Source: a virus. Taken from it: a stretch of 64,000 bases of DNA. A model generated the notes under the pieces. It saw nothing but the letters and a program-made list of their open reading frames with translations. It did no database searches and was not told the origin of the DNA. Location: positions 1 to 64,000 of IMG/VR virus record IMGVR_UViG_3300045912_000789; one strand, written 5' to 3'. Positions within the stretch are counted from its first letter, which is position 1; each line of letters starts with the position of its first letter. Below, piece by piece: positions 21,177 to 54,400 of the stretch. Made by a program: the position numbers and the translations under genes.

Positions 21177-21487
21177 CAGCGGCTCCTGGTCGGCGGCGTC
21201 GGCGTGGGAGGCAGCTCTCCGTGGTCGGCGAAGAACTGGAGGATCGGAAGGAGGTCCTTGACCATGTCGCGGGTCAGGTGCATCCGCGCCATGGCGCCCT
21301 TCTTTCCGTTCTCCTCGACGAGGTTCACCTCCTCGATGCTGGCGTGGTTGACGCCGAACCAGATGGCGTCGTCGGTCGCCAGCGACGACTCCTGGATCGA
21401 GCACTTCTCGCCGTAGCGATCGGTGAACTCGAAGCGCTCGAACCCGCGGTCGGTCTTCTTCGAGGTGATCTGGAACTTCTTGGCCAT
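21176..21487 (-). CDS. Conserved phage protein
   Basis: RGF..F.DRYG..CSIQESSLA..AIWFG..RMHL..LLP.L..F..GEL motif. Confidence 0.75.
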   Translation of the reverse strand: MAKKFQITSKKTDRGFERFEFTDRYGEKCSIQESSLATDDAIWFGVNHASIEEVNLVEENGKKGAMARMHLTRDMVKDLLPILQFFADHGELPPTPTPPTRSR

Positions 21488-22479
21488 CAGGGATTCTCCG
21501 CCCAGAAGCGCTCCTGGATGTCGCAGCAGCGCAGGTTGAGGAACTCCACGTTCGGTGCGCGGGGCAGCTCGGACTTCGCGTACAGCTCCTGCATCTCGGC
21601 GTCCTGTTGCTCTGCCCACGCGATGTCGTCGTACTTCCAGGCGCCGCGGCGGATCGCCAGCAGCTCCTCGGCGTCCGGGCGCCTCACGACCATCTCGCCG
21701 CGCGTCAGGATCTCACGGCACATCCGCAGCAGGCGCACGAGGTGCATGGCGTGCTTGGTGTCGTAGCCGAACTTCGCCTCCAGCTCGGCACGCGCTGGGT
21801 TGCGTTGCTTCTTCCAGCTCTGGTAACTGTTCCAGTTCTGCATCGCAGCGTGGTAGCGCTTCTCGGCGCCGACGATCTCTTGGACGTTCGGGCTGGGCGC
21901 GTAGCCCTCCTCCTTCAGATCGTCCACGAGCTTGTCGTACGCCCCGAGCATGTCGGGCGTGATCTTGACGTTGTCCGGCAGGCCGAAGTCCTTGCGCTCG
22001 GGCTTGGCGCCCGGCGGGTTCCGCAGCCAGCCGCGGTGTGTGCGGATGCGCTTGAGCTGGTGGATCGCGTAGCCGGTGAAGGTGTGCTTGGCCTTCTTCG
22101 ACAGGAACGCGTAGCGCAGCTCGCGCAGCGACTGCCCGGCAGGCGTGATCTTGATGATGTCCGAGTCGTCGACGAAGAGGACTTCGAGGACGTTCGGGTT
22201 GCAGTCTGCTGCGAGGTTCATGAACTTGCGGAGGTCGTAGATCACCTGATCGACCACGGCGTTCCCGAAGCCGTCGCGCTGGATCTTCGACTCGTTCTGC
22301 TCGAACGTGTAGGCGAAGCCCGTGACGTGCGTCCGTGGCGCGATGGCGGCGCCGCGAAGATCGATGTCGCTGTCGGGGAGGTTCGTGCCGTAGGCGTGGG
22401 ATCCGTGCCGGGCGAGGTAGATGGTGCGCGGTTCGATGTCGAAGTGCATGTTCACCAGGTCTTGGGTCTGAGTTTCCAT
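21487..22479 (-). CDS. Pol-beta superfamily nucleotidyltransferase (YcgL/RlaP/T4 NrdC.11-like)
   Basis: GSHAYGTNLPDSDIDLRG, NPNVLEVLF, YDTKHAMHLVRLL and LLAIRRG motifs. Confidence 0.85.
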   Translation of the reverse strand: METQTQDLVNMHFDIEPRTIYLARHGSHAYGTNLPDSDIDLRGAAIAPRTHVTGFAYTFEQNESKIQRDGFGNAVVDQVIYDLRKFMNLAADCNPNVLEVLFVDDSDIIKITPAGQSLRELRYAFLSKKAKHTFTGYAIHQLKRIRTHRGWLRNPPGAKPERKDFGLPDNVKITPDMLGAYDKLVDDLKEEGYAPSPNVQEIVGAEKRYHAAMQNWNSYQSWKKQRNPARAELEAKFGYDTKHAMHLVRLLRMCREILTRGEMVVRRPDAEELLAIRRGAWKYDDIAWAEQQDAEMQELYAKSELPRAPNVEFLNLRCCDIQERFWAENP

Positions 22480-22733
22480 CCGCGCTCATCGAGCCAGGCC
22501 TTCAGATCGGCCCAGCTCGCTGACGCGCGGTCCTTGTTCTTCTCGTCGAGGAAGAAGAGCTTGTAGACGTCGCGGAAGCAGAGTCCGTCGTGGCATGAAC
22601 AACAGCCACCGGGACGCATGATCGGAGGCTGAGGCTGCCCGCGGAGATCTAGCGCTCCATCGTCAGTTCTCTTCTCGACGATCACCTTCTGATCGAGTCG
22701 GAACGGTTGTGTGTCGAACTCCGTGATGACCAT
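22452..22733 (-). CDS. Cys-cluster hypothetical protein
   Basis: CCSCHDGLC; in operon. Confidence 0.55.
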   Translation of the reverse strand: MVITEFDTQPFRLDQKVIVEKRTDDGALDLRGQPQPPIMRPGGCCSCHDGLCFRDVYKLFFLDEKNKDRASASWADLKAWLDERGWKLRPKTW

Positions 22734-22747
22734 GGTCAACCCCCAGG

Positions 22748-22854
22748 AAAAAGACGCGGCGCCGGTGCACCGGCACCCCAGGTTTCCCCAGAGTACCAGT
22801 GCACCGGCGGGCGCGGAGGAGAGAACACACGAAGGAGGGGCGGCTCCCCACCAC
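22748..22854 (-). ncRNA. Candidate small RNA / attenuator leader
   Basis: Begins just after a class A motif; CU-rich segment; 22-bp hairpin 22761-22808 with GAAA loop and five G-U pairs valid only on this strand; U5 tract. Confidence 0.55.
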
Positions 22855-22865
22855 TTGCTTATAGG
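22855..22865 (-). promoter_or_regulatory. Class A motif CCTATAAGCAA
   Basis: Conserved motif flanked by CCACC/GGTGG and GGCGG/CCGCC arms. Confidence 0.65.
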
Positions 22866-22881
22866 TGGATCCCGCCTCAGT

Positions 22882-23613
22882 TCATCGCGCCGCGAGCTGC
22901 GCCATCATCTCCTCGATCTTGGACGGCAGCTCCTCCAGCGGGCATCTGTTGTCGAGGACGTACTGGAACCGTTCGCGAGGGATCTCGGTCAGCTCGCGCT
23001 CGCTGGCGTGCGTGGCCTTCGCGGCCTCCTCCAGCTTGCGCAGGAGCAGGACCGTGGTGCCGCCCAGCTCGACGCTGCGGGCTTGCTCGTTGATGAAGCG
23101 ACCGTCGGTGACGACGAACTGGGGCTCGGGCTCGATCTGGACGTTCTCGTAGGCGGGCTGCATCGGGCTGGAGAAGAGCGGAGCGAACGAGCGAGCCTTC
23201 CAGTTCTGGCGAGCGCGCCACATCGACGAGAACAGGTTGTCGATCCAGACCGTGCCGAAGAGACGCCGGCCCCACTCGGTCCCCAGGGTCTGGAGAGCGA
23301 TCCGCGGGTTGACGTAGCGGGGGTAGTCGTCGAGGCATCCCGGTTGCGTGCAGCTCAGCCCGCCCTTCGTGTTCTCGAAGAGGGGCGAGTCGCACTTCAG
23401 ACAGCGGTCGCCCATCGGGTACTGCTTGTACTGGTTCTCCCGGTTCTTGCTCGGACCGTAGAGATCCTCGTCCGTGAAGTCGGGGAAGGCGATCTTGACC
23501 ATCTGCTTGAGCGGCGCCGCGAAGCTCACCTTCGTGAACCCGTGGTTCGCCACGAGGTAGTCGCCGATGGTGTCCTTGCCGCTGCCGCGGCCACCGAAGA
23601 GGACGATGTTCAC
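22882..23613 (-). CDS. Deoxynucleoside monophosphate kinase
   Basis: GGRGSGKDT P-loop, SFAAPLK, PRIALQTLGTEWGR, VVTDGRFINE and HASE motifs (T4 gp1-like); CxxC..C..C insertion. Confidence 0.88.
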   Translation of the reverse strand: MNIVLFGGRGSGKDTIGDYLVANHGFTKVSFAAPLKQMVKIAFPDFTDEDLYGPSKNRENQYKQYPMGDRCLKCDSPLFENTKGGLSCTQPGCLDDYPRYVNPRIALQTLGTEWGRRLFGTVWIDNLFSSMWRARQNWKARSFAPLFSSPMQPAYENVQIEPEPQFVVTDGRFINEQARSVELGGTTVLLLRKLEEAAKATHASERELTEIPRERFQYVLDNRCPLEELPSKIEEMMAQLAAR

Positions 23614-23933
23614 GTGGTCTCCTTTTCGATCGCCTGACCAGGCGGTGGCGGGGTGATCTGCTCGCCGTTCGGGAAGACCAGGGTCTGCCCCACGTAGAGA
23701 TCGCGCAGGATGTTGTCGCAGAGCTGGCGCAGGGCGGCGACCTCCTCGGCGGACCAGAGCTGCTTCAGCTCGGGCGGGGTGCCCTTCGGCATCAGCTTGT
23801 CGAAGCGGACGTACGGCTGGCGGAAGACGCCCTCGCCGTGCATCTCGATGAGGGCCTGCACGTTGCCGAGCCGGGGCATCGCGACGAGGTGCGTGCGCTT
23901 CGGCTCCTGGGGGTTGTCGTTCTCGGTGGACAT
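23610..23933 (-). CDS. Hypothetical protein
   Basis: AAGGA SD; first gene after a class A motif. Confidence 0.7.
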   Translation of the reverse strand: MSTENDNPQEPKRTHLVAMPRLGNVQALIEMHGEGVFRQPYVRFDKLMPKGTPPELKQLWSAEEVAALRQLCDNILRDLYVGQTLVFPNGEQITPPPPGQAIEKETT

Positions 23934-23946
23934 CGCTTTCCTTTCG

Positions 23947-23958
23947 TTGCCTGATAGG
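23947..23958 (-). promoter_or_regulatory. Class A motif CCTATCAGGCAA
   Basis: Variant of the conserved motif at a divergent junction. Confidence 0.6.
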
Positions 23959-23993
23959 CGGGGAAGCCGCTGTCGGCTACACTACCAGGCGCC

Positions 23994-26900
23994 GTGACGA
24001 TCTACACCTCACAGATGATCTCGGGCATGGTCGGCCAGCAGGTCGGCATGTTCGCTGGCTACGGCGGCTACGCCCAGCAGATCAACCCCATGATGATGGG
24101 GTACCCCGGGATGATGCCGCCGGCGATGCCGCAGCTCGGTGCGGGCGCGGCGATGCGTCGCGGCATGGGCGGGGTGTACGGCGAGCAAGCCGCGATGCGC
24201 ATGGCGAACGTCGGCCAGACGGCGATGGGCGTCGGCATGGCCGGCCTCGGGGTGCTCAGCGCGTTCAGCCCGATCCCGATGGACCCGTTCAGCGGCGGCA
24301 TGATGGGCCTGATGCGCGGCGGGATCGGTGGCGGGCTCATGGGCGCCGGGGCCGGAGCTGTGGCGGCGCTCCCGCTTTACGCTGCGACGCAGGCGGCTCA
24401 GGTCTACGGCGGCGCCTTCATGGGAGGCATGCAGGATCAGGCCGCGCTCAACAGCACGCTGCGGAACAACTTCCAGCACTTCGGCGGTCAGGGCGCGTTC
24501 GGTCGAGGCTTCAGCCAGAACCAGATGGGCCAGATCGGCCAGATGATCAGCGGTGAGCTGCGTCGTAGCCCGTTCAGCAACGCGCAGGAGATGAACCAGC
24601 TCGTCCAAGGTGGGGCCGAGGCCGGGATGTTCACGGCGGTGCGCGACGTCCAGCAGTTCACGCAGCGCTTCCGCACGATGCTGAACACGCTGCGAGATGT
24701 GCAGCGCGAGCTGGGTGGCACGCTCACCGACGCGCTCCAGTTCGTGCGTGGCGCTCAGCAGGCTGGCATCTTCCGCAACGCCGATCAGGCGAACTTCGCG
24801 TCCGAGGTTCGTACGGCCGAAGCGGTCACCGGCATGGATCGTAACCAGCTCATCGCGCTGAGCGCTCAAGGCGCGCAGATCAGTCGGGCGTTCGGCGGGA
24901 TGGGGCGGCAGGGCGCGATGGGCGCTCTGCGAGGCGCACAGACTCTCGGCGCCGCGATCCAGTCGGGCGTGGTCAACCAGGAGATGCTCTCGGAGGCCAC
25001 GGGCGGGCTGATGGGGGCCGAGGCGATCGGCGCATTCACCACGAACATGCTCCAGCGCGCGGGCCGCTTCAGCCGAACCGGCATGGGACGCTTCAGCCTC
25101 TTCGCGCTCAGCAACGCGGAGGGCACTGGGCTCGACGCCGACATGATGTCGAGGTTCATGGCAGGCGATCTCTCGACCGGAGAGGTCAGCCGAGCGGCTC
25201 ACCGTCGAGTGGGCGGGATGGGGCGCGCTCGGGCGCTCAACCGGGAAGGGCTGCTTCGAGGGGCGGTGATGGAGGAGGGCGGCATGGCCGCCCAGATCGG
25301 CATGATGCGTCTGATGGTCGGAGATCGAGTGCTCGACCAGAGCGACGACATGGCGAGCCTCGTCCTCCAGCGGCGCTTCCACATGAGCCGGCCGGAGTCC
25401 GAGCTGATGATGAACCTGATGCGGAACCAGGGAACGATCGCTCAGGAAGAGGCGATGACGGCCCGAGGTGCGCGTCGTCAGACTGACATCTCCCGCGACA
25501 TCAGCGAGAACCGAAGCGTCGACGCCTTCATGCGACAGCTCGAACACGGCATGTCCGACACGATGGGCGTGACCCGCGTTCGAGAGCTGGGACGCAGCTT
25601 CATGACTCGGATCAGCTCGCTTGCCGAGCGGGCGATGAACGACATCCTCGGCATCTCGGCTTCGACTCTCACGCGAGGAGACGAGGCCGCCCTCAACCGG
25701 ATGTTCCTCGGCCGATCGTCGGCAGCCGACATCGCGCGGCTCGACACCCGAGGCGCCGGTGGCGGCGGGGACATGATCAATGCCGAGTCGCTCTTCGATC
25801 GGCCGCTTGCCCAGGACGTGCTGCATGCTCTGCCGTTCGGCATGGGCGGTCACGTCCCGCTCACCGCTGGTGAAGCGCTCAGCCGGCGCGGCGTGCGCGG
25901 GCTTCGGGGACCCGGTGCCGGCGCTACTGCGCGTGATGCGATCGAGGAGGCACGACAGGCTCAGACGGGCCTGGTCATGGGCGACAGCCGCCTTGCGCTC
26001 GATCGGCTCGCTGCCGACACCGAGCGGACCATGCGGCGCATCTCGCAGGCTGATCTGATGTCTGCGGGCCTGGGCGACAGCTCGCGCTTCTACCAGCTCC
26101 TCGGAGGAGACGCGAACGCGATCGATGCGTTCATGGCGAACAACGGCATGACCGGCACGATGCGGGGAGCCGGTGGTGTGCCCAGCCTGGCGAACGTGGG
26201 TGCTGGTGGGCGGATCACCGCGGGCGGGCTGGTGCGGGACGCCCTGCGATTCATGCTCGGCGGGGCTACCGGAATGGCCGTGTCCGAAGCGCTCGGGTTC
26301 GGTGGGTCGGAGACGCTCGCTGCACTCCGGACGCCCGAGGAGAGCGCAGCAGCGTTCTTCACGGGAGGCAACGCGGGCTTCCGGCGAGAGATGCTGCGGC
26401 GGTCGGGAGGACGTACCGGAGCCGACGTTCGCGAGACGATCTCGTACATGGAGGGGGCGGGTCTGGGAGACGACGCGGTCCGCCGAACGCTCGGCCTCAG
26501 CGAGAACCGCGCGGCTCTCCTGCTCGAAGGCGTGGAGGGCGTCGACCGGTCGGCCATGGAGGCGGTCCTGGGCTCGGAGGAGTTCCAGGGACGTGCTCGC
26601 CGGATCCTGGGTGCCGGAGAGGGGCTCGGCGACGAGCTGGAGGCGCTTCGTCGGTACGCAGGCACCCTGGAGGACCCCGCTCAGCGACGAGCCGTGGAGT
26701 CGCTCGCCGAGCAGATCAACCAGGGCGCGGGGGCCAACGGCGAGATCACCGGGGAGCTTCGTAGGGCGCTGGAGGCGTCGGGGTTCGATCCCCGCCGCAT
26801 CGCGGAGATCCGTACGCGGCGCGCGGACATGGCGTCCGAGTACCGGGCGATGGCCCGAGGGATCACGGCAGTCGGCGGCGAGGGCCTGTCGGAACTCGCT

Positions 26901-27611
26901 GGAGCCTTCACCGGCGCCGGCGAGGCGCTGATGGGCACCGAGGATCCCACCGAGGCCGTCAACCGTGCCCGCATGATGCTCTCTCGCATGGACACCGGAA
27001 CGGAGGAGTACGGGGACGTCGCATCGGCCCTGGGCGGCACCGAGGGCGGTCGTGCCCTCATGGCCGCTGCGGCACAGGACCGGCACATGCGCCGAGCGCT
27101 CAGCGGACGTGGACGACGCGGTGGAGCTGAGGCGGCCGAGACCGCGCTCGGTGCGATCACCGGTGGCTCGCTCTCGGAGATGGAGTTCACGGTCGGCGGG
27201 CGGACCATCCGCGGCAGCGACCGCAACGCCGCGCGTCGGATCGCCGGCATCCTCTCGGGCGGTGGACGCGGCGCCGAGGAGGTCATGACGCAGCTCACCA
27301 CGCACCTCCGCGGCCTCGGCATGAGCGAGGAGGAGGCGTCGGGCATGGTGGGCACCGTCACGATGGGCTTCATGGGAGGTCGCGGCGGTACGATGAGCGA
27401 GAGAGCCATCGAGGACCTCATCCGCTCCACCGGCAGCTCGGAGACCCTCTCCCGCGTCCGGCGTGAGGGCTCGGAGCGCATGGCGCGCGAGCGGGACCCG
27501 CTCGGGTTCGAGCGCAACCAGATCCTGGGCCGCATGGAGACTGCGCTCAACGGGATCCGTGATCGCCTGCCCGGAGCCACCACCAGCGAGCCCACAGGAG
27601 AAGCCGGATGA
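23994..27611 (+). CDS. Tape-measure-like protein (1205 aa)
   Basis: Long, helical, G/A/M/R-rich; hydrophobic Gly-rich segments; TACACT box at 23978-83. Confidence 0.6.
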   Translation: MTIYTSQMISGMVGQQVGMFAGYGGYAQQINPMMMGYPGMMPPAMPQLGAGAAMRRGMGGVYGEQAAMRMANVGQTAMGVGMAGLGVLSAFSPIPMDPFSGGMMGLMRGGIGGGLMGAGAGAVAALPLYAATQAAQVYGGAFMGGMQDQAALNSTLRNNFQHFGGQGAFGRGFSQNQMGQIGQMISGELRRSPFSNAQEMNQLVQGGAEAGMFTAVRDVQQFTQRFRTMLNTLRDVQRELGGTLTDALQFVRGAQQAGIFRNADQANFASEVRTAEAVTGMDRNQLIALSAQGAQISRAFGGMGRQGAMGALRGAQTLGAAIQSGVVNQEMLSEATGGLMGAEAIGAFTTNMLQRAGRFSRTGMGRFSLFALSNAEGTGLDADMMSRFMAGDLSTGEVSRAAHRRVGGMGRARALNREGLLRGAVMEEGGMAAQIGMMRLMVGDRVLDQSDDMASLVLQRRFHMSRPESELMMNLMRNQGTIAQEEAMTARGARRQTDISRDISENRSVDAFMRQLEHGMSDTMGVTRVRELGRSFMTRISSLAERAMNDILGISASTLTRGDEAALNRMFLGRSSAADIARLDTRGAGGGGDMINAESLFDRPLAQDVLHALPFGMGGHVPLTAGEALSRRGVRGLRGPGAGATARDAIEEARQAQTGLVMGDSRLALDRLAADTERTMRRISQADLMSAGLGDSSRFYQLLGGDANAIDAFMANNGMTGTMRGAGGVPSLANVGAGGRITAGGLVRDALRFMLGGATGMAVSEALGFGGSETLAALRTPEESAAAFFTGGNAGFRREMLRRSGGRTGADVRETISYMEGAGLGDDAVRRTLGLSENRAALLLEGVEGVDRSAMEAVLGSEEFQGRARRILGAGEGLGDELEALRRYAGTLEDPAQRRAVESLAEQINQGAGANGEITGELRRALEASGFDPRRIAEIRTRRADMASEYRAMARGITAVGGEGLSELAGAFTGAGEALMGTEDPTEAVNRARMMLSRMDTGTEEYGDVASALGGTEGGRALMAAAAQDRHMRRALSGRGRRGGAEAAETALGAITGGSLSEMEFTVGGRTIRGSDRNAARRIAGILSGGGRGAEEVMTQLTTHLRGLGMSEEEASGMVGTVTMGFMGGRGGTMSERAIEDLIRSTGSSETLSRVRREGSERMARERDPLGFERNQILGRMETALNGIRDRLPGATTSEPTGEAG

Positions 27612-31360: not shown

Positions 31361-31683
31361 CACCCTTTCGCCATGTACTTGGCGATCGGGGTGACCGACG
31401 TCATGTCGGCCGGGTCGGTGAGCACTCGGTACGTCAGGTGCTCGACCCAGCCGACGAGGAAGTGGCTGAAGCGCTCGATGCGGAAGTCCTCGTTCTCCAC
31501 GAACTTCTTCCGCAGCGTCTCGATGCGCCGCCGCCACGCGTTCCTCTTGGAGTCGTCGGCGTCTCGGAAGTCGATCACCGGACCGATCGTCCAGGTCACG
31601 AACATCTGCTTGTTCTCGCCGCTGTAGATGAAGTCGGCCGGGCGGCTCAGCAGCTTGCGCACGACGTCCGGCCCCACCTTCAC
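31360..31683 (-). CDS. Hypothetical protein
   Basis: GTGA coupling at 31683. Confidence 0.6.
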   Translation of the reverse strand: MKVGPDVVRKLLSRPADFIYSGENKQMFVTWTIGPVIDFRDADDSKRNAWRRRIETLRKKFVENEDFRIERFSHFLVGWVEHLTYRVLTDPADMTSVTPIAKYMAKG

Positions 31684-32339
31684 GGATCCAGCCACGCCTT
31701 CAGCCTCTCGAACTGCTCGGGGGAGATCACCTTCTTCTCCTCGCTGGTGAGCGAGGCGTACTCGAAGTTGACGTCCTTCCACGAGTAGTTCAGCAGCCCG
31801 CGGATGGCGTCCGGTTCCGGCACGACCTTGTCGCGCGAAAACTGCCACACCGAGTCGTCCCACCAGATGACCTCGGACATGTGCGGGTAGATGTTGCAGA
31901 CCCCTCTCTTGATCCACTTCACGATCGGCCCGGCCTCGTCCCCGTAGACGTTGCTGCTGCCGAACACGAAGCCGGTGTCGCCGCGACGAACGCCCGCGCC
32001 CTCGGGGTCGTAGTTCTTCCTAGCGACCACCATCATCCCGGGCACGAGATCGAACTTCGTGTGGTCCCACTTCGTCTTGCCGGCGTTGTTCCACCGGTAC
32101 GCCATCATCGACGGCGAACTGGGGTCGATCGTCGGATCGCCCATCTGGACGCGGAGGGGAAGGTTGATGGGCGCTCGGGTGAGGTCGTCGAGCGTCATCG
32201 GGCGGCCCATCCGCTTCTCCAGGCACGCGATGTGGAGGACGCCTCGCGGGCTCTCGTGGAACTTCTCCCACAGCTCGTTCTTGACCATGTACTGATCGTC
32301 CACCGGCAGGTGGCACTCCGTGCACTTGTACTTGCTCAT
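31680..32339 (-). CDS. Multi-domain phage protein with an N-terminal Zn finger
   Basis: AAGGAG SD; CTEC..YMV..LW..LHIACLEKRMGR. Confidence 0.7.
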   Translation of the reverse strand: MSKYKCTECHLPVDDQYMVKNELWEKFHESPRGVLHIACLEKRMGRPMTLDDLTRAPINLPLRVQMGDPTIDPSSPSMMAYRWNNAGKTKWDHTKFDLVPGMMVVARKNYDPEGAGVRRGDTGFVFGSSNVYGDEAGPIVKWIKRGVCNIYPHMSEVIWWDDSVWQFSRDKVVPEPDAIRGLLNYSWKDVNFEYASLTSEEKKVISPEQFERLKAWLDP

Positions 32340-41288: not shown

Positions 41289-41331
41289 ACGGATGTGGTG
41301 CAGGCCCCCGAGGGGGCCCGCACCGCTCCGT
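41289..41331. terminator. Hairpin terminator at a convergent junction
   Basis: ACGGA..GGTGC-a-GGCCCC-CGAG-GGGGCC-c-GCACC..TCCGT. Confidence 0.65.
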
Positions 41332-42059
41332 CAGCCCTCGTCGCCGCCGCTCAGGATCCGACGCAGCTCGGGCGGCAGGTCGCCGCCGCCCAGCTCCATC
41401 ACCTGGATGTCGAGGCCCGGGATGCCGCTCCGACCACGCCCGCGGCGACCGCCGGGCGGCCCGCCGAGGAGCATCTCGAAGAGGGCGCCGAGGACCCCGC
41501 CGGCCGACGGCCCGCCGAGCCCCATCTCGTTGGCGAGGTCGAGCAGGTTGCGCGCGGTCTCCCGCACGCCCTGCTTGTCCTCCTCGGTCTCGTCCCGGTT
41601 GAGGCTCTTGGTGAGGAAGTGATCGGTCGCCGGCCCGGGCATCCGACCGCGGTACTCGGCCGAGCGGATCTTGTCGGCCGACTCGACGCTCGCGCAGAGC
41701 GCACACGAGCAGCCCGGCGTGAGCCGCTCGGTGTGCATCCGCTCGCGCTCGTCGCCGGCGGCGACGAAGGCGCGCACGAGCTTCTCGCGCTCCGGCTTCA
41801 TCAGCCGGACGAAGAAGCTCTTGATCGACTCGCCCTCCGCCGAGCGCGAGTCGATGCCGTGGATCATCAGCGCGACCTCGACCTTCGCCGAGAAGTCGTC
41901 GGTCTTCCGCGCGTCGCTGAGCGGCAGCATCACGAGCGTCTTCATGAAGTCGCCGAAGGTCGCGTACCGCAGCGCCTTGGCGGAGAGGGCCTCGTTGTCC
42001 GCGCGCAGCTTCTGGTTCTCCTCGCGAAGCCGCTGCATCTCGATGTTCGTCGTGTTCAT
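41331..42059 (-). CDS. Hypothetical protein (single-gene island)
   Basis: GAGGAG SD; H..CSCALC motif; own class A motif. Confidence 0.7.
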   Translation of the reverse strand: MNTTNIEMQRLREENQKLRADNEALSAKALRYATFGDFMKTLVMLPLSDARKTDDFSAKVEVALMIHGIDSRSAEGESIKSFFVRLMKPEREKLVRAFVAAGDERERMHTERLTPGCSCALCASVESADKIRSAEYRGRMPGPATDHFLTKSLNRDETEEDKQGVRETARNLLDLANEMGLGGPSAGGVLGALFEMLLGGPPGGRRGRGRSGIPGLDIQVMELGGGDLPPELRRILSGGDEG

Positions 42060-42089
42060 GTGGGTGCTCTCCTCGTGTGTTCGGTGGGC

Positions 42090-42148
42090 CGGAGCCCGTT
42101 CACTGGCTTATAGGGGCACCGGGCTCCGATTTCGTGTAGGATTCCGGC
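42090..42148. promoter_or_regulatory. Divergent promoters: class A (-, CCTATAAGCCA 42114-42104, inside a 9-bp IR) and class B (+, TAGGAT 42137-42, N6, ATG)
   Basis: CGGAGCCCG (42090-98) and CGGGCTCCG (42120-28) flank the motif. Confidence 0.65.
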
Positions 42149-50000: not shown

Positions 50001-51087
50001 CGACACCGATCCCTTCATCACGGTGTCGTTCCCGTTCCCGATGCCGCGACAGGACGTCGTCGACTTCATCAACGAGCAGGTCGGTGAGGACATCGCTTCG
50101 CTCACCAGCGGCGGGAACCTGCGGCTGCGGTCGAGCCGCCGCATCGAGCTGGACCCGACGTCGACCGTCATTACGCACGCGTCGAACCCCCTGTTCCTCG
50201 CCGGCGCGGCGCTGAACACCGATCACCCCGACAAGGGCACGTACATCGTCCGCACCGTGTCGGAGAACGTCCTGACGTTCTCCACCAAGACGGGCCAGCA
50301 GATCACGAGCGGAACCACGGCGGACACGCTCTACCGCATCCGACGGTACGTCCAGCGCATCTCCCCCACGGAGATGAACCTGAACCTCGACTCCTCGGGG
50401 CTCTACTACGCCGACGTGCAGATGCTGTCGCTGGCGCCCGGCGACATCTACAACATCACGTCGGGGGTCTCGCTGGAGATCTCGGGCGTGCGCAGCGATG
50501 GCTATCGGCTGATCGTGGACAACCCCGTCACGTCGTTCAGCAGGGCGGAGGTGCTCCGCGCCGAGATCAGCCGGACGATGCTCCTCGTGGGCAGTGCAGA
50601 CGATCCGACCGAGGCGGTGCAGCTCAGCCAGCAGAACGTCCAGGTCACGTACGACCGCTCCCAGCTCGTCGACGAGGTCCAGAGCTTCGCCGACTCGGAC
50701 TTCCAGCGGGTGATCTGCGAGGAGATCCTCGTCCGCCACCTCCTCCCTCACTACGTCTCGATGACCTGGAACTACGCCGGCGGGTCGAGCGAGCCGGACA
50801 TGCTCCGCGCGATCCAGGATCTGCTCGATGGCATCGAGCCGGACGAGCAGCTCGAAGTCACCGACCTCACCAACGTGCTGCGTCGCCGGAGCGCGACATC
50901 GGTGTTCACGCCCGACTCCAGCAGCTCCACGGGCCGGACGGCTCCGTTCTTCATCGTCGTCTACCACGACGAGAACCGGGCCATCCACGCACTGATCGTC
51001 AAGGACTACGTGACGACCGTGCGGACCCAGCGCTACATCCCCGACAAGATCACGCTCACTCGTATCACCACGGGCGGCATCCGCTAG
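47062..51087 (+). CDS. Baseplate J-like wedge protein (1341 aa)
   Basis: N-terminal LANFFISR..G..VYF..A..G..YN..NP..GG..E..RA..LS..G..DPEMQRD; TAGGAT-N6-ATG. Confidence 0.7.
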   Translation: MANNDTRQFLQDALVRYDPDIDLSEGSRADTELVQPILQRIGIDPFDDDILTFVRTRVQQSFPNLAITEDDPLTDILLDAMRVLIEPLVREVKLVKLRGSLRNIESLSDDEVEALLANFFISRITGGFSVGVVRVYFATPQSLSLTLTNPATTKAGLRFRPTRPQAITADQMLLNREGSEFYFDVNYTAEKRGDEYNVEPNEIVSVANLPTATRIRNPRRFRGGVPQEGILDFAARAQRSLSDKTLTVERGIISTLTESFPAIRRIFSVGFRDPEMQRDVIKGGSLGPVPGADISGDFFGAGTAVDDFDGDLLTPILDAPGGAFVSRLGPVGAQPEGWFVTVVYTVGATLVVEDVAVLEVLSSTQVRLDHEFPVTSPAQSVTWMLRQRSLTISDIPGGIVLPDTATGTLEIKKDEVHIGGKTDVYIAGETELATAQIESLTDESPAAKGTNAQTQGLTPGSEDIIRINDPSGLIAPGSSLVLEEGVDAGSYRILEIVSGPSPLYVRVDTDMTGAQGSLAWKVVDEIDVELTDPKDIKVEGADMVTSAGNQVVTTSSATNFIDANVQPGDVLELFDEDFGGEFAVDEVNAVSLKVSPAPARTFTSVSYRVFRRSEAVDPPLVRVSSMELLDSTGAPSGTVIPYRDPVLALSNAFQNEGSGFVFEGLCLVGLVSDPEPSGSAAYVVGGQTIDWEVYNPDTIWLDPVNVGTFTFIAGPAKTAAQVVAEINADVLLDLMGVKARVITKLNNDYVGIVTSSHIRFVGGTALSAFGWGAGVRNSMMRSVEDQFSDAGVRLGDAIEVVEGNSAGILGRIIAGPIVGGPSDTVFVGTGPVGPEETSGFSGLFNNVVFNPDVNVLVRIGRASVGSARVFFLGPTAAEFDYRTTRFTASVPEATLLFRPDPENLRIVRPPPPITELPNTGITDNTTPGQLTDNDANFLLFGIQLGDLVDVLYVPIVGTGPLPPSGNIAFTGLNNVLRIRLDTDPFITVSFPFPMPRQDVVDFINEQVGEDIASLTSGGNLRLRSSRRIELDPTSTVITHASNPLFLAGAALNTDHPDKGTYIVRTVSENVLTFSTKTGQQITSGTTADTLYRIRRYVQRISPTEMNLNLDSSGLYYADVQMLSLAPGDIYNITSGVSLEISGVRSDGYRLIVDNPVTSFSRAEVLRAEISRTMLLVGSADDPTEAVQLSQQNVQVTYDRSQLVDEVQSFADSDFQRVICEEILVRHLLPHYVSMTWNYAGGSSEPDMLRAIQDLLDGIEPDEQLEVTDLTNVLRRRSATSVFTPDSSSSTGRTAPFFIVVYHDENRAIHALIVKDYVTTVRTQRYIPDKITLTRITTGGIR

Positions 51088-51395
51088 TCGCCGTGACCTC
51101 GGACGATCGGGAGCGCGTCGTCGACTCTGCGAGGATCCCCCGTGTCGAGCACGATGTTCGTACGGGGGTCCACGGTCGCGCCGCAGTCCTGGCAGTACGC
51201 CATCATCCGGGGAAGCGGGTCGTGCTCGGAGAAGACCTGCGGCGTGTAGAGCTGCGGCGACATGGCCGAACGGCAGCGCGGGCAGGGCATGGATTTGATG
51301 AACGCCGTCCGGCTCTCGGCGAGCGGGGTCAGCTCGTCGGGGATGCCCTGGATCATGCGCTGGGCTAGACCTGGCGGAAGCGGTCGAAACTTCAT
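51084..51395 (-). CDS. Small zinc-ribbon protein
   Basis: CPRC...CQDC; fills the gap between two baseplate genes. Confidence 0.65.
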   Translation of the reverse strand: MKFRPLPPGLAQRMIQGIPDELTPLAESRTAFIKSMPCPRCRSAMSPQLYTPQVFSEHDPLPRMMAYCQDCGATVDPRTNIVLDTGDPRRVDDALPIVRGHGD

Positions 51396-51423
51396 CGCGG
51401 TACGAGTACGATAGCACAGCGAC

Positions 51424-54400
51424 ATGGCTCTCCCGACTTCGCCGACCTGGACTCTCGCCGACTTCAGCGGCCCCACGCTGGGCAGCCTGCTGTCGCTGGG
51501 CCCCAGTGATCTCACGATCACCCCGTCGACGTCGCCCTACTTCTCGTACAACGACGACTTCAGCGTCCTGACAGCTCGGTCGGCCGACGGAGCCCTGGCG
51601 ATGCTGGACTTCCACGTCCCGATTCCGCCTCGGTTCACGGTCGAGATGACGCTGCGGTTCCCCGAGATGCCACACAACCTCGCCGACCTCGAATCGCGAC
51701 GCGCGGGCCTCACCGTCGCCGATGACGGTGGACGCGGCATCGCGATCTACTTCGCTACCACCGGTCTGGCGGTCAGCCGAGTCGACGACTTCGGGAGCGT
51801 GACCGCGCTACCCGACACCACCGACACCACCGAGGAGATCGCCGTCACGTTCAAGACGATCCGCGTGGCCGTCGATTCGGGGCTCGGTCGTGCGTACGTC
51901 TTCATCGGGAACGAGTCCACCGTGGACCCCGAGGTCCGGTTCATCCTGCCGGTCGAGGCGACGCCGGCGACGGTGCTCGACGTCTTCCGCCTCTTCGTGA
52001 AGGGACTCTCGACGCAGCCTAGCCGAGTCGAGATCAAGGCGCTGCGGCTCGCCGGAGATCTGGTCATCCCGAACTTCCCGCCGACCGCCATCGCTGGGCC
52101 GGATCGGGTGGCTCCCGTCGGACAGGCGGTGCGCTTCGACGGCCGGTCCAGCTTCGACATCGAGGGGGCGCCGCTCACCTACCTCTGGAGGATCTTCGAC
52201 GCCCCGTTCGGCTCGCAGTACGCCGCCGAGAACAGCTCGGGCTCGACGGTGGACGACGGCGACGCCGATGGGTTCACCGATCTGCTCAGCTTCACCCCGA
52301 ACTCGCTCCCCGGCTGGGTGGCGCCCGGAGACATGCTCCGCATCGGAGCTGCTCGGCACATCATCGCCACCGTCGACAACCCCGGGGGACAGCTCACGAC
52401 CGAGGCCGAGACGATCCCCGACAACCTGTCGAACGTCCCGTTCCGCATCATCGATCAGAGCGCGCTCGTGGGCTCCGACACCGAGACCCCGTACCTCGTG
52501 GCGGACGTCCAGGGCGTCTACCGGGTCGAGTTGATCGTGAACGACGGCGAGTCCGACAGCGAGCCGGCCGAAGCTCTGGCCAGCATCGTCGGGGCCCGCG
52601 CCCCCTTCGGGGTCGAGCCGGACGTCTCCCCGATCTGGAAGGCGCTGGGTGACGAGTGGCAGCTCGTGCGCGGCAAGGAGGTCTTCGAGGAATCCTGGCG
52701 AGGGGTCGCGCAGATCCTGGCCGGGAGGCTGCTGGAGGTCTGGCAGCATCACTACAACTACAGCCTCCGCGATGCGCAGCGCACCTTCCAGCGCAAGTGG
52801 GTCGCGTACCGGTCGCTCATCACGGAGACAGATCCGGATGGTGCTGTGATCTCTCCGCGCTACGGCCTGGTGCGCGCCTCCCACGAGTTCGAGACCAGCG
52901 CTCCGGCCGTGGTGGGGCAGACCCTCGTGTTTGAGTACTTCACCGGCACGAGCGCTACGGCGGTCGAGCAGCGCACGGTCATCCTGACCGGCACCAGTCT
53001 GGCCAGCATCATCGCAGACGTGAACGCCGCGATGGTCGGCACCGGGATCTCGGCCTTCGGGTACGCGCTTCGCCGCGGTGACGCCACGTACCGCGCCATC
53101 ATCACGGGCGGCTCCACGACCGACGACGGAGACGGCGACGGGCTGACGCTGACGCTGTCGTTCCCCCCGCTCTCGCTCCCGTCGTGGGTGGCGGCGGGGG
53201 ACACGCTGGTCCTCGGGGGAGAACGCTTCACGATCGCTACGGTGAACAACCCCGGAGGCTCGCTCACGATCACGGCCGAAGAGCTGCCCGACAACCTGTC
53301 GGGTGTCACCTTCGTCGTCTACCGGATCGCTCGGCTCGGCTTCAAGGGGATGCGCGGGTTCCGGATCGCGTCCGGCACCGCCATGGCGACGCTGGGCATC
53401 ACCACGGCGTACAACTACCTGGAGGGTCTGGATGGGGCGCTGGTCACCGACCGAACGTACTACGCAGGCGACGGCGTCGACCTCAGCGAGCACGGCGTCA
53501 GTCGTGGTGATCTGCTCGTTCTCAACAACGGCCAGTCGTTCCGGATCGACCGCATTCTCACGGCCCAGGACGACCCCCTCCCCGGGCAGCGCCTTCTCCT
53601 CGTCGACGAACTGCCTTTCGACGCCAGCGAGTCTTGGAGCATCCCGTCGATCGTCCGATCGACCGTGGTCGACTACGAGTTCGAGGGCGCGTACCCGGGA
53701 GATCTCGTCAAGGCAGAGGTCTTCGATGCCGAGACGAACACCACCACGGATGTCCTGGGTCGTGTCGTGGCTCAGAAGGGCACGCAGCTCGCCGCGAACC
53801 TGACCGGGTTCTTCGGCGCGCTGCTCGACGACGAGCGGTACGAGATCCGGCTCCTGGGTGTGAAGCGGCGCAAGGCGATGCCGATCGCCGAAGACGTCGT
53901 CAGCATCCCCCGGCTCCAGGACATCATCCCCGTCAACAAGTACGACGAGAACGGCGCCAAGGTCCCCTCTGGCCAGACGATCTGGCGGGAGAACGAGCAC
54001 TACGTGCTGGAGCCGTTCTACCGAGACATCGGGGGCGCGCCCATCCCGCAGCTCCAGTTCCGGGACTCGGTCTTCATCGACCCCGACCTCGAACCGCCCG
54101 ACATCTTCTGGGCCGAGCTGACGATCTTCAGCAACGACCAGAACGTCGAGGACCTGTTCGGTCGGCTCGCTGGGTTCCTGCGCGACGATGCCTCCGTCTT
54201 CTCGTCCGACTTCAACTACGTCTCGGGCGTGGCGGGCCTGATCTACGCTCAGCAGCGCGGCCCGAGCGTGGAGGCTGTCCGCGTCGGTGCCCAGATCCTC
54301 TTCGGCCAGCCGTTCGCCGAGGTCTCCGGGACCATCGAGGAGATCAGCGACGACTTCTCGCCCACCACAGGCCGGATGCTCGTACGCGACTCCACTGGGG

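Follow-up and report, generated by a model that had tools for sequence, protein, structure and literature searches.

The 148-nt gap at 22734-22881 (minus strand) in the genome of an uncultured phage probably holds a new phage regulatory RNA. This genome is a single contig of 171,909 bp with 67% G+C, and the window, i.e., the whole stretch of DNA that was analysed, comprises its first 64 kb. Judged from the comparison with related sequences, the element is real and conserved and represents a new RNA family of a known kind. The reading we prefer, to which we assign a probability of about 45%, is that of a small RNA, which runs from promoter to terminator and pairs with ribosome-binding sites, while read-through of its terminator would feed seven promoter-less genes downstream.

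Upstream of the gap lies a dNMP kinase gene (22882..23613, minus-strand reading; PF21448, phrog_139). The first gene downstream is a 93-codon ORF (22452..22733, minus strand), followed by a gene for an RlaP-type nucleotidyltransferase (21487..22479) and five further tightly packed genes reaching down to 19356. The ORF has a weak SD sequence (GGGGG) and an ATG at 22731..22744 (minus strand) and is the first of seven genes without a promoter motif of their own. Along the minus strand, the promoter at 22864 is followed by the terminator at 22748 and the ATG at 22733. All sequence features that had been described for this site in a sequence-only reading were located on the minus strand between 22864 and 22748.

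The promoter motif CCTATAAGCAAGTG covers 22852..22865 (minus strand), with the core CTATAAG at 22864-22858; positions 22865-22854 of the minus strand read CCTATAAGCAAG. Transcription would start from this phage-type CTATAAG promoter at around 22852, a G that is located 6-7 nt past TATAAG, and most transcripts would end at a long hairpin with a U5 at 22748. The distance from the predicted start to the U-tract is ~105 nt, in line with the claim that about 105 non-coding nt follow a class A motif. The resulting RNA of ~105 nt would consist of a G-rich/C-rich hairpin at the 5' end, an exposed invariant pyrimidine stretch CCUCCUUCGUGUGUUCUCUCC and the terminator hairpin at the 3' end. With a promoter, a terminator and no ORF, the predicted transcript has the anatomy of a small RNA.

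The small 5' hairpin GGGG-AGCCG-CCCC lies at 22837..22849 (minus strand). Alternatively, its G-rich arm could pair with the distal CUCUCC, and the CU-rich stretch would then be looped out. At the site of this hairpin, each relative carries a different G-rich/C-rich pair (GGGCG/CGCCC, GGGA/UCCC, GAGG/CCUC or GAGGGAAG/CUUCUCUC). This supports the hairpin weakly, since purine-rich and CU-rich runs pair easily. The conserved CU-rich stretch CCCCTCCTTCGTGTGTTCTCTCCTCC (also given as CCCCUCCUUCGUGUGUUCUCUCCUCC) spans 22840-22815 of the minus strand and contains the two anti-SD motifs that had been claimed for it as well as the invariant core. For the part of it that is predicted to be open, CUCCUUCG, the predicted unpaired probability is 0.8-0.99 in five of the eight sequences and ~0.7-0.9 in L056, with smaller values for L053 and L057. 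In several relatives, pairing is predicted for the distal half of the stretch.

The long hairpin (22755..22815, minus strand) displays in the MFE fold an inner stem of 23 bp (22809-22787 with 22782-22760, minus strand), a GAAA loop (22786-22783) and an outer stem of 4 bp. Here, the hairpin, its loop and the five G·U pairs had been recognized before, and only the claimed length of 22 bp has to be corrected. On the plus strand the five G·U pairs would be A·C or C·A mismatches; the hairpin is therefore specific for the minus strand. Directly 3' of it the U-tract UCUUUUU is located (22748..22754, minus strand), including the expected U5 at 22752-22748, and a T-rich tail is present at the same place in all relatives. 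Hairpin and U-tract together would form a textbook intrinsic terminator. The extended hairpin has an energy of -52.9 kcal/mol and exceeds in stability all other terminator-like hairpins found in the genome, the clear terminators of which range from -20 to -36 kcal/mol. The whole unit also folds more stably than its own shuffles, with a z of -3.95.

Two alternative readings of this DNA were rejected. A coding reading as a 63-codon GTG frame (22663..22854) is broken by indels in the relatives; these are 1-2 nt long and not multiples of three, and the element is therefore non-coding. A plus-strand frame antisense to the kinase was dismissed as well, since the G·U pairs and the U-tract function on the minus strand only.

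The relatives were found by metagenome protein searches, after which the contigs were fetched. The element is present 3' of the dNMP kinase gene in eight distinct relatives (L012/L018, L017, L020, L056, L053, L057, L019 and L055), of which L017 is cut by the contig end and L019 has a copy that is identical in L021, L022 and L025. Their kinases are 95, 83 and 61-55% identical to that of the window. The gene downstream of the element differs among the relatives, and the conserved neighbour is the dNMP kinase gene and not the nucleotidyltransferase gene. Over 6.5 kb the locus shares 90.7% identity with L012; the flanking genes reach ~93-97% and the gap 147 of 148 positions.

Within the multiple alignments (A2, A3; 9 relatives) the promoter core CTATAAGCA.GTG is invariant. 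The same alignments show an invariant UCGUGU(GU)UCUCUCC, despite the adjoining kinase being only 56-61% identical, and the invariant single-stranded core amounts to 14-16 nt. The 5' hairpin and the lower stem of the large hairpin vary freely among the relatives. For the large hairpin, 24 pairs were followed through eight sequences: 96.3% of the cells are paired and 11 pairs have changes on both sides, a degree of covariation reached by none of 500 shuffles, while slid controls are 30-45% paired. The covariation check that had been suggested for this hairpin has consequently come out positive, with 11 compensatory pairs. At the top of the stem (GGUA/UGCC) one U·G pair and the adjoining GG/CC pairs never change. 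The element is present in one copy per genome, and no paralogs of the seed were found in G000 or in the complete relative G001 (172,310 bp). The claim of a discrete RNA element is borne out by these data, as the element is more than a spacer: it is conserved and strand-specific, and its own promoter motif is followed by a 5' hairpin, by a stretch that is both invariant and accessible, and by a terminator.

Further observations concern the surroundings of the element. The DNA of the 93-codon ORF (22452-22733, minus strand) is ~79% identical to the L012 copy, compared to 93-97% for the flanking genes and 99% for the non-coding gap, and its product would be a fast-evolving small protein adjoining a frozen RNA element. 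The divergent region of 60 nt at 23934-23993, between the genes 23610..23933 (minus strand) and 23994..27611 (plus strand), is ~99% identical to L012, a level of conservation equal to that of the sRNA gap. One of its strands bears a CCTATCAG motif, the opposite one a TACACT-type -10 together with a near-leaderless GTG. In the 95%-identical relative (L018:1990-2093) the kinase is without a stop codon and has a 34-residue C-terminal extension with a C..C pair, ending just before the element.

A search with Rfam gave no match at the gathering threshold in the whole window and, at E <= 10, only generic hairpin matches to miRNA models; a covariance-model match to RsaE, 6C or any other Rfam family was not found at the element. 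Among cultured phages, no DNA match to the locus was obtained, and the kinase and the nucleotidyltransferase had only distant protein matches. IMG/VR, searched with the kinase protein, contained only relatives of 26-30% identity, none with the element. A DNA pattern scan of viral_contigs returned two real matches of one lineage plus chance matches, and that of metagenomes 28 matches with one real among them, this pattern being too loose. In the literature searched, no described phage-encoded anti-SD sRNA of a similar sort was found, and the paper on Phage Arash holds no promoter or sRNA data.

The motif CTAT[ACG]AG occurs at 35 sites in the genome, 29 of which lie within intergenic DNA, although this makes up only 5.7% of the genome. 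The sites are co-oriented with the next gene and located mostly 14-50 nt before its start codon. Judged by this genome-wide placement, the motif behaves as a promoter. At operon boundaries of this genome the usual order is a terminator hairpin, a T-rich tail and then the CTAT[ACG]AG motif. The element shows the opposite arrangement, with the motif in front, the terminator 105 nt behind it and no ORF between the two. After correction of obvious gene-start miscalls, only two motif sites without a nearby ORF are left, namely the element and a tmRNA site.

The latter belongs to a tmRNA gene outside the window (147719-148124, plus strand; ARAGORN, tag ANDNSYAPAALAA), which lies 35 nt past the promoter motif GCTATAAGCATG and accounts for a gene-free gap of 664 nt. 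In more distant relatives (L014:33-978, L015:2352-2604) the nucleotide sequence of the tmRNA region is conserved, and the region forms a contiguous cluster with thyX and the RlaP nucleotidyltransferase. G001 also has a tmRNA (tag ANDSSYAQARAA), without a CTATAAG directly upstream. At ~103223-103309 of the genome (minus strand) a CTATAAG precedes a strong SD and what may be an ORF of 21 codons; directly after this unit stands a second promoter, the CTATGAG of gene 102612..103166. The CTATAAG of gene 41331..42059 lies within the loop of an 8-bp inverted repeat (GGAGCCCG ... CGGGCUCC; 42107-42140, minus strand), and in a similar way CCAC/GUGG, or CCUCAC/GUGAGG in L019, encloses the promoter of the sRNA unit.

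The site might also be an ordinary operon boundary, where hairpin and U5 end the kinase transcript, read-through is partial and transcription starts anew at the motif. In that case the CU-rich stretch would be kept for reasons other than base pairing, e.g., for the stability of the RNA, as a site of RNase III or RNase E, or for a protein such as S1. The combination of hairpin and U-tract, being that of a textbook intrinsic terminator, fits to this explanation, and RNase III could act on a perfect stem of this length (23-27 bp). Nevertheless, the other boundaries of the genome have the promoter after the terminator and stems of only 9-17 pairs. Furthermore, an invariant single-stranded block of 14-16 nt beside proteins that are 56% identical needs a sequence-specific partner, and we regard an ordinary boundary as unlikely.

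A stronger competitor, which we consider possible but doubtful, is a purely cis-acting leader. Here, CTATAAG would be the promoter of the seven-gene operon and the hairpin with U5 a conditional terminator, i.e., an attenuator or the target of antitermination. Recognition would take place at the invariant stretch and at the conserved hairpin top, and the short RNA would be a by-product like the 6S RNA of lambda PR'-tR'. Several observations speak for such a leader. No CTATNAG is present on the minus strand between 22864 and 19356, and hence none between the terminator and the next seven genes; that the seven downstream genes are promoter-less in any relative fits this explanation at least as well as it fits an sRNA. 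In all eight relatives the U-tract runs directly into the SD and the ATG, which leaves no room for a promoter. The order of promoter and terminator is the reverse of the genome's usual one, and a bound factor is suggested by the top of the stem (GGUA/UGCC with the invariant U·G), where the sequence itself is kept, in contrast to the free covariation of the lower stem. In addition, the CU-rich stretch contains the words GUUCUCU and CUCCUU, which may be boxA-like.

On the contrary, no antiterminator fold competing with the terminator was found in any of the eight sequences, and the element is therefore not a classical attenuator. The proposal of an attenuator for the nucleotidyltransferase operon keeps some probability: a terminator between promoter and first gene is indeed present, but the folds of the eight homologs and the consensus fold revealed neither an antiterminator nor a sensor domain. 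No antiterminator protein was identified either. Moreover, the element accompanies the kinase gene in relatives whose downstream genes differ, and a leader acting only in cis leaves unexplained why the match to the consensus start region extends beyond the anti-SD words.

This antisense match was evaluated with a local complementarity score between the 26-nt stretch and the region from -30 to +6 of the 217 called genes, which replaced unrestricted duplex folding, since the latter allowed large loops and was uninformative. A score of at least 25 is reached by 36 start regions, compared to 11.4 ± 5.6 for shuffled seeds, and a score of at least 28 by 17 start regions, compared to 3.8 ± 2.5 (0/300 shuffles in both cases). 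Start regions are matched three to four times more than by shuffles and score higher than gene interiors. This excess over shuffles is partly built in, as any CU-rich stretch matches SD sequences. If both anti-SD words are kept and only the middle CGTGTGTTCT is shuffled, the counts are still lower (p ~0.01-0.03), and AACACA is 24-fold enriched in leaders. Therefore, the stretch is antisense to the typical start region beyond GGAGG. The idea of a generic anti-SD RNA thus gains support, since the number of start regions that are matched lies far above that of shuffled seeds and also above that of middle-only shuffles.

The same excess is observed in G001 (0/200 shuffles). The seed of the window and that of G001 fit either genome equally well, and there is accordingly no genome-specific co-variation of seed and leaders.

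For an individual target, the sequence-only reading had named the gene 41331..42059, 19 kb from the element. Its promoter CTATAAGCCAG, leader and start codon lie at 42057..42113 (minus strand). The claimed 14-nt match exists: CUCCUUCGUGUGUUC (22837-22823) pairs with GAACACACGAGGAG (42082-42069), which covers the SD, by 10 perfect bp, one bulged U and 4 bp, with a duplex energy of -23.8 kcal/mol. Its significance on its own did not hold up, as 36% of the composition-matched shuffled seeds find an equally good best match among the 217 start regions. The gene ranks among the top three start regions with a score of 32, the best being 33. Around 25 ungapped matches of 10-11 nt to the CU-rich stretch are present in the genome, and no long target stands out anywhere in it.

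Some support comes from the ortholog in G001 (51083..51733), which keeps the CTATAAGCCAG promoter, whereas its leader is otherwise unalignable. This leader contains ACGAAGGAGGAU, a perfect 12-nt complement of the G001 seed with -21.2 kcal/mol. Duplexes of a 16S-like tail at the same two leaders reach -8.7 and -12.5 kcal/mol, in contrast to -23.8 and -21.2 kcal/mol for the seeds. This pair ranks first by joint score among the 148 reciprocal-best ortholog pairs, with SD strength as a confounder. Since a correlation of seed scores is found for orthologous start regions in general (Spearman 0.39), the best joint score is only modest support for this gene. As a target of the proposed trans-acting sRNA, 41331..42059 is consequently not singled out statistically within the genome, but the conserved 12-nt complement argues modestly for it. 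The product of 242 aa gave no lead in Pfam, PHROG or Atlas. The next-best joint complementarity with G001 orthologs was obtained for 31680-32339 (minus strand), 80232-81308 (plus strand) and 140422-140745 (plus strand), the last two outside the window, and these are further candidate targets. An antitoxin role, which had also been considered, finds no counterpart at the locus: no toxin-like gene overlaps or adjoins the element, and the start region of the next ORF is poorly complementary (score 14).

The complementarity could also act in cis, if the CU-rich stretch on read-through transcripts hides the SD of the next gene. In L020, the leader of the next gene GGAGGAGAGAACAAUG (L020:3820-3854) is a perfect 13-nt complement of UGUUCUCUCCUCC with a score of 34, and in the sequence analysed here CCUCC is joined to the downstream GGGGG in the MFE fold. 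However, the other seven relatives score only 13-21, which is no better than the mean of 20 for all start regions and renders translational repression in cis highly improbable. As a conserved feature, sequestration of the next SD was rejected, L020 being the only strong case among the eight.

Taken together, the small RNA acting on ribosome-binding sites could function as follows. The exposed stretch resembles the 3' tail of the 16S rRNA and is antisense to a typical start region (..GAACACA..GAAGGAG..). The accessible CCUCCUUCGUG.. loop would pair with ribosome-binding regions, so that start regions containing an SD would be bound and the loading of ribosomes blocked. The best conserved candidate target would be the single-gene unit 41331..42059, but many SD-led mRNAs of phage and host could be targets as well. 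The mRNAs of the structural genes, being leaderless and therefore without an SD, would not be affected. It is possible, as had been proposed in the sequence-only reading, that SD-led messages are repressed while the leaderless structural messages are spared. Between the terminator and the downstream genes no promoter motif is present, and these genes must therefore be fed by read-through. Polymerases passing the terminator would supply the seven promoter-less genes, with the leaky terminator as the entry gate of the downstream operon; the sRNA unit would therefore also set the level of the operon. In a more far-reaching variant, for which we see little likelihood, the phage's own polymerase would produce the RNA in large amounts, as a mimic of the 16S tail that titrates SD-led host and early phage mRNAs but does not affect the leaderless mRNAs of the structural genes.

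Among known systems, the element is similar to RsaE/RoxS of Gram-positive bacteria and the 6C RNA of Actinobacteria. These are short RNAs with their own promoter and an intrinsic terminator, in which exposed C/U-rich motifs pair with the G-rich SD regions of many mRNAs and block initiation. In contrast to them, the element is without an Rfam match and phage-encoded, and its function is a prediction. Its stretch is also longer (~22 nt) and covers the leader beside the SD, and its terminator stem comprises 23-27 bp.

Small phage-borne RNAs pairing with start regions of phage or host mRNAs are represented by the c4 RNA of P1/P7, sar of P22 and DicF. They have one or few specific targets, some of them in cis, and c4 is made from a transcription unit that continues into downstream genes. 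The element differs from these RNAs since it complements a consensus start region and its best candidate target is 19 kb away; a sequence similarity to them is not known.

With regard to its layout, the element resembles lambda PR'-tR' (6S, Q antitermination) and nut/put, with a promoter, a strong terminator 100-200 nt further on, genes that depend on read-through and a conserved element between promoter and terminator. Unlike in lambda, no Q-, N- or put-like component was identified at the element, and it does not show the two-hairpin put fold. A likeness to 3'-UTR sRNAs of the DapZ type is found in the position of the promoter at the very end of the upstream gene and in the terminator, which is common to the sRNA and the kinase mRNA; the seed is therefore also carried in the 3' UTR of this mRNA. 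In contrast to the DapZ type, the promoter of the element lies past the stop codon instead of within the coding sequence.

Little has been mapped so far of the regulatory RNAs that lytic and uncultured phages carry. Comparative support as obtained here, with eight relatives, covariation and an invariant seed, is rare among phage sRNA candidates. The phage belongs to a large and little-studied group with an RNA polymerase and a sigma factor of its own, and this polymerase is probably the one that transcribes the element. If the RNA pairs with ribosome-binding sites, the phage would possess a simple means to tune or shut off SD-dependent translation. This would be linked to the split of its genome into SD-led non-structural and leaderless structural genes. 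If the mimicry of the 16S tail were true, it would constitute an RNA-based switch from SD-led to leaderless translation during infection. If the element is a cis-acting leader instead, it would mark a regulated terminator for the phage-encoded bacterial-type polymerase, which would be equally useful for the understanding of this enzyme. In either reading, the element is a clean candidate for a new RNA family.
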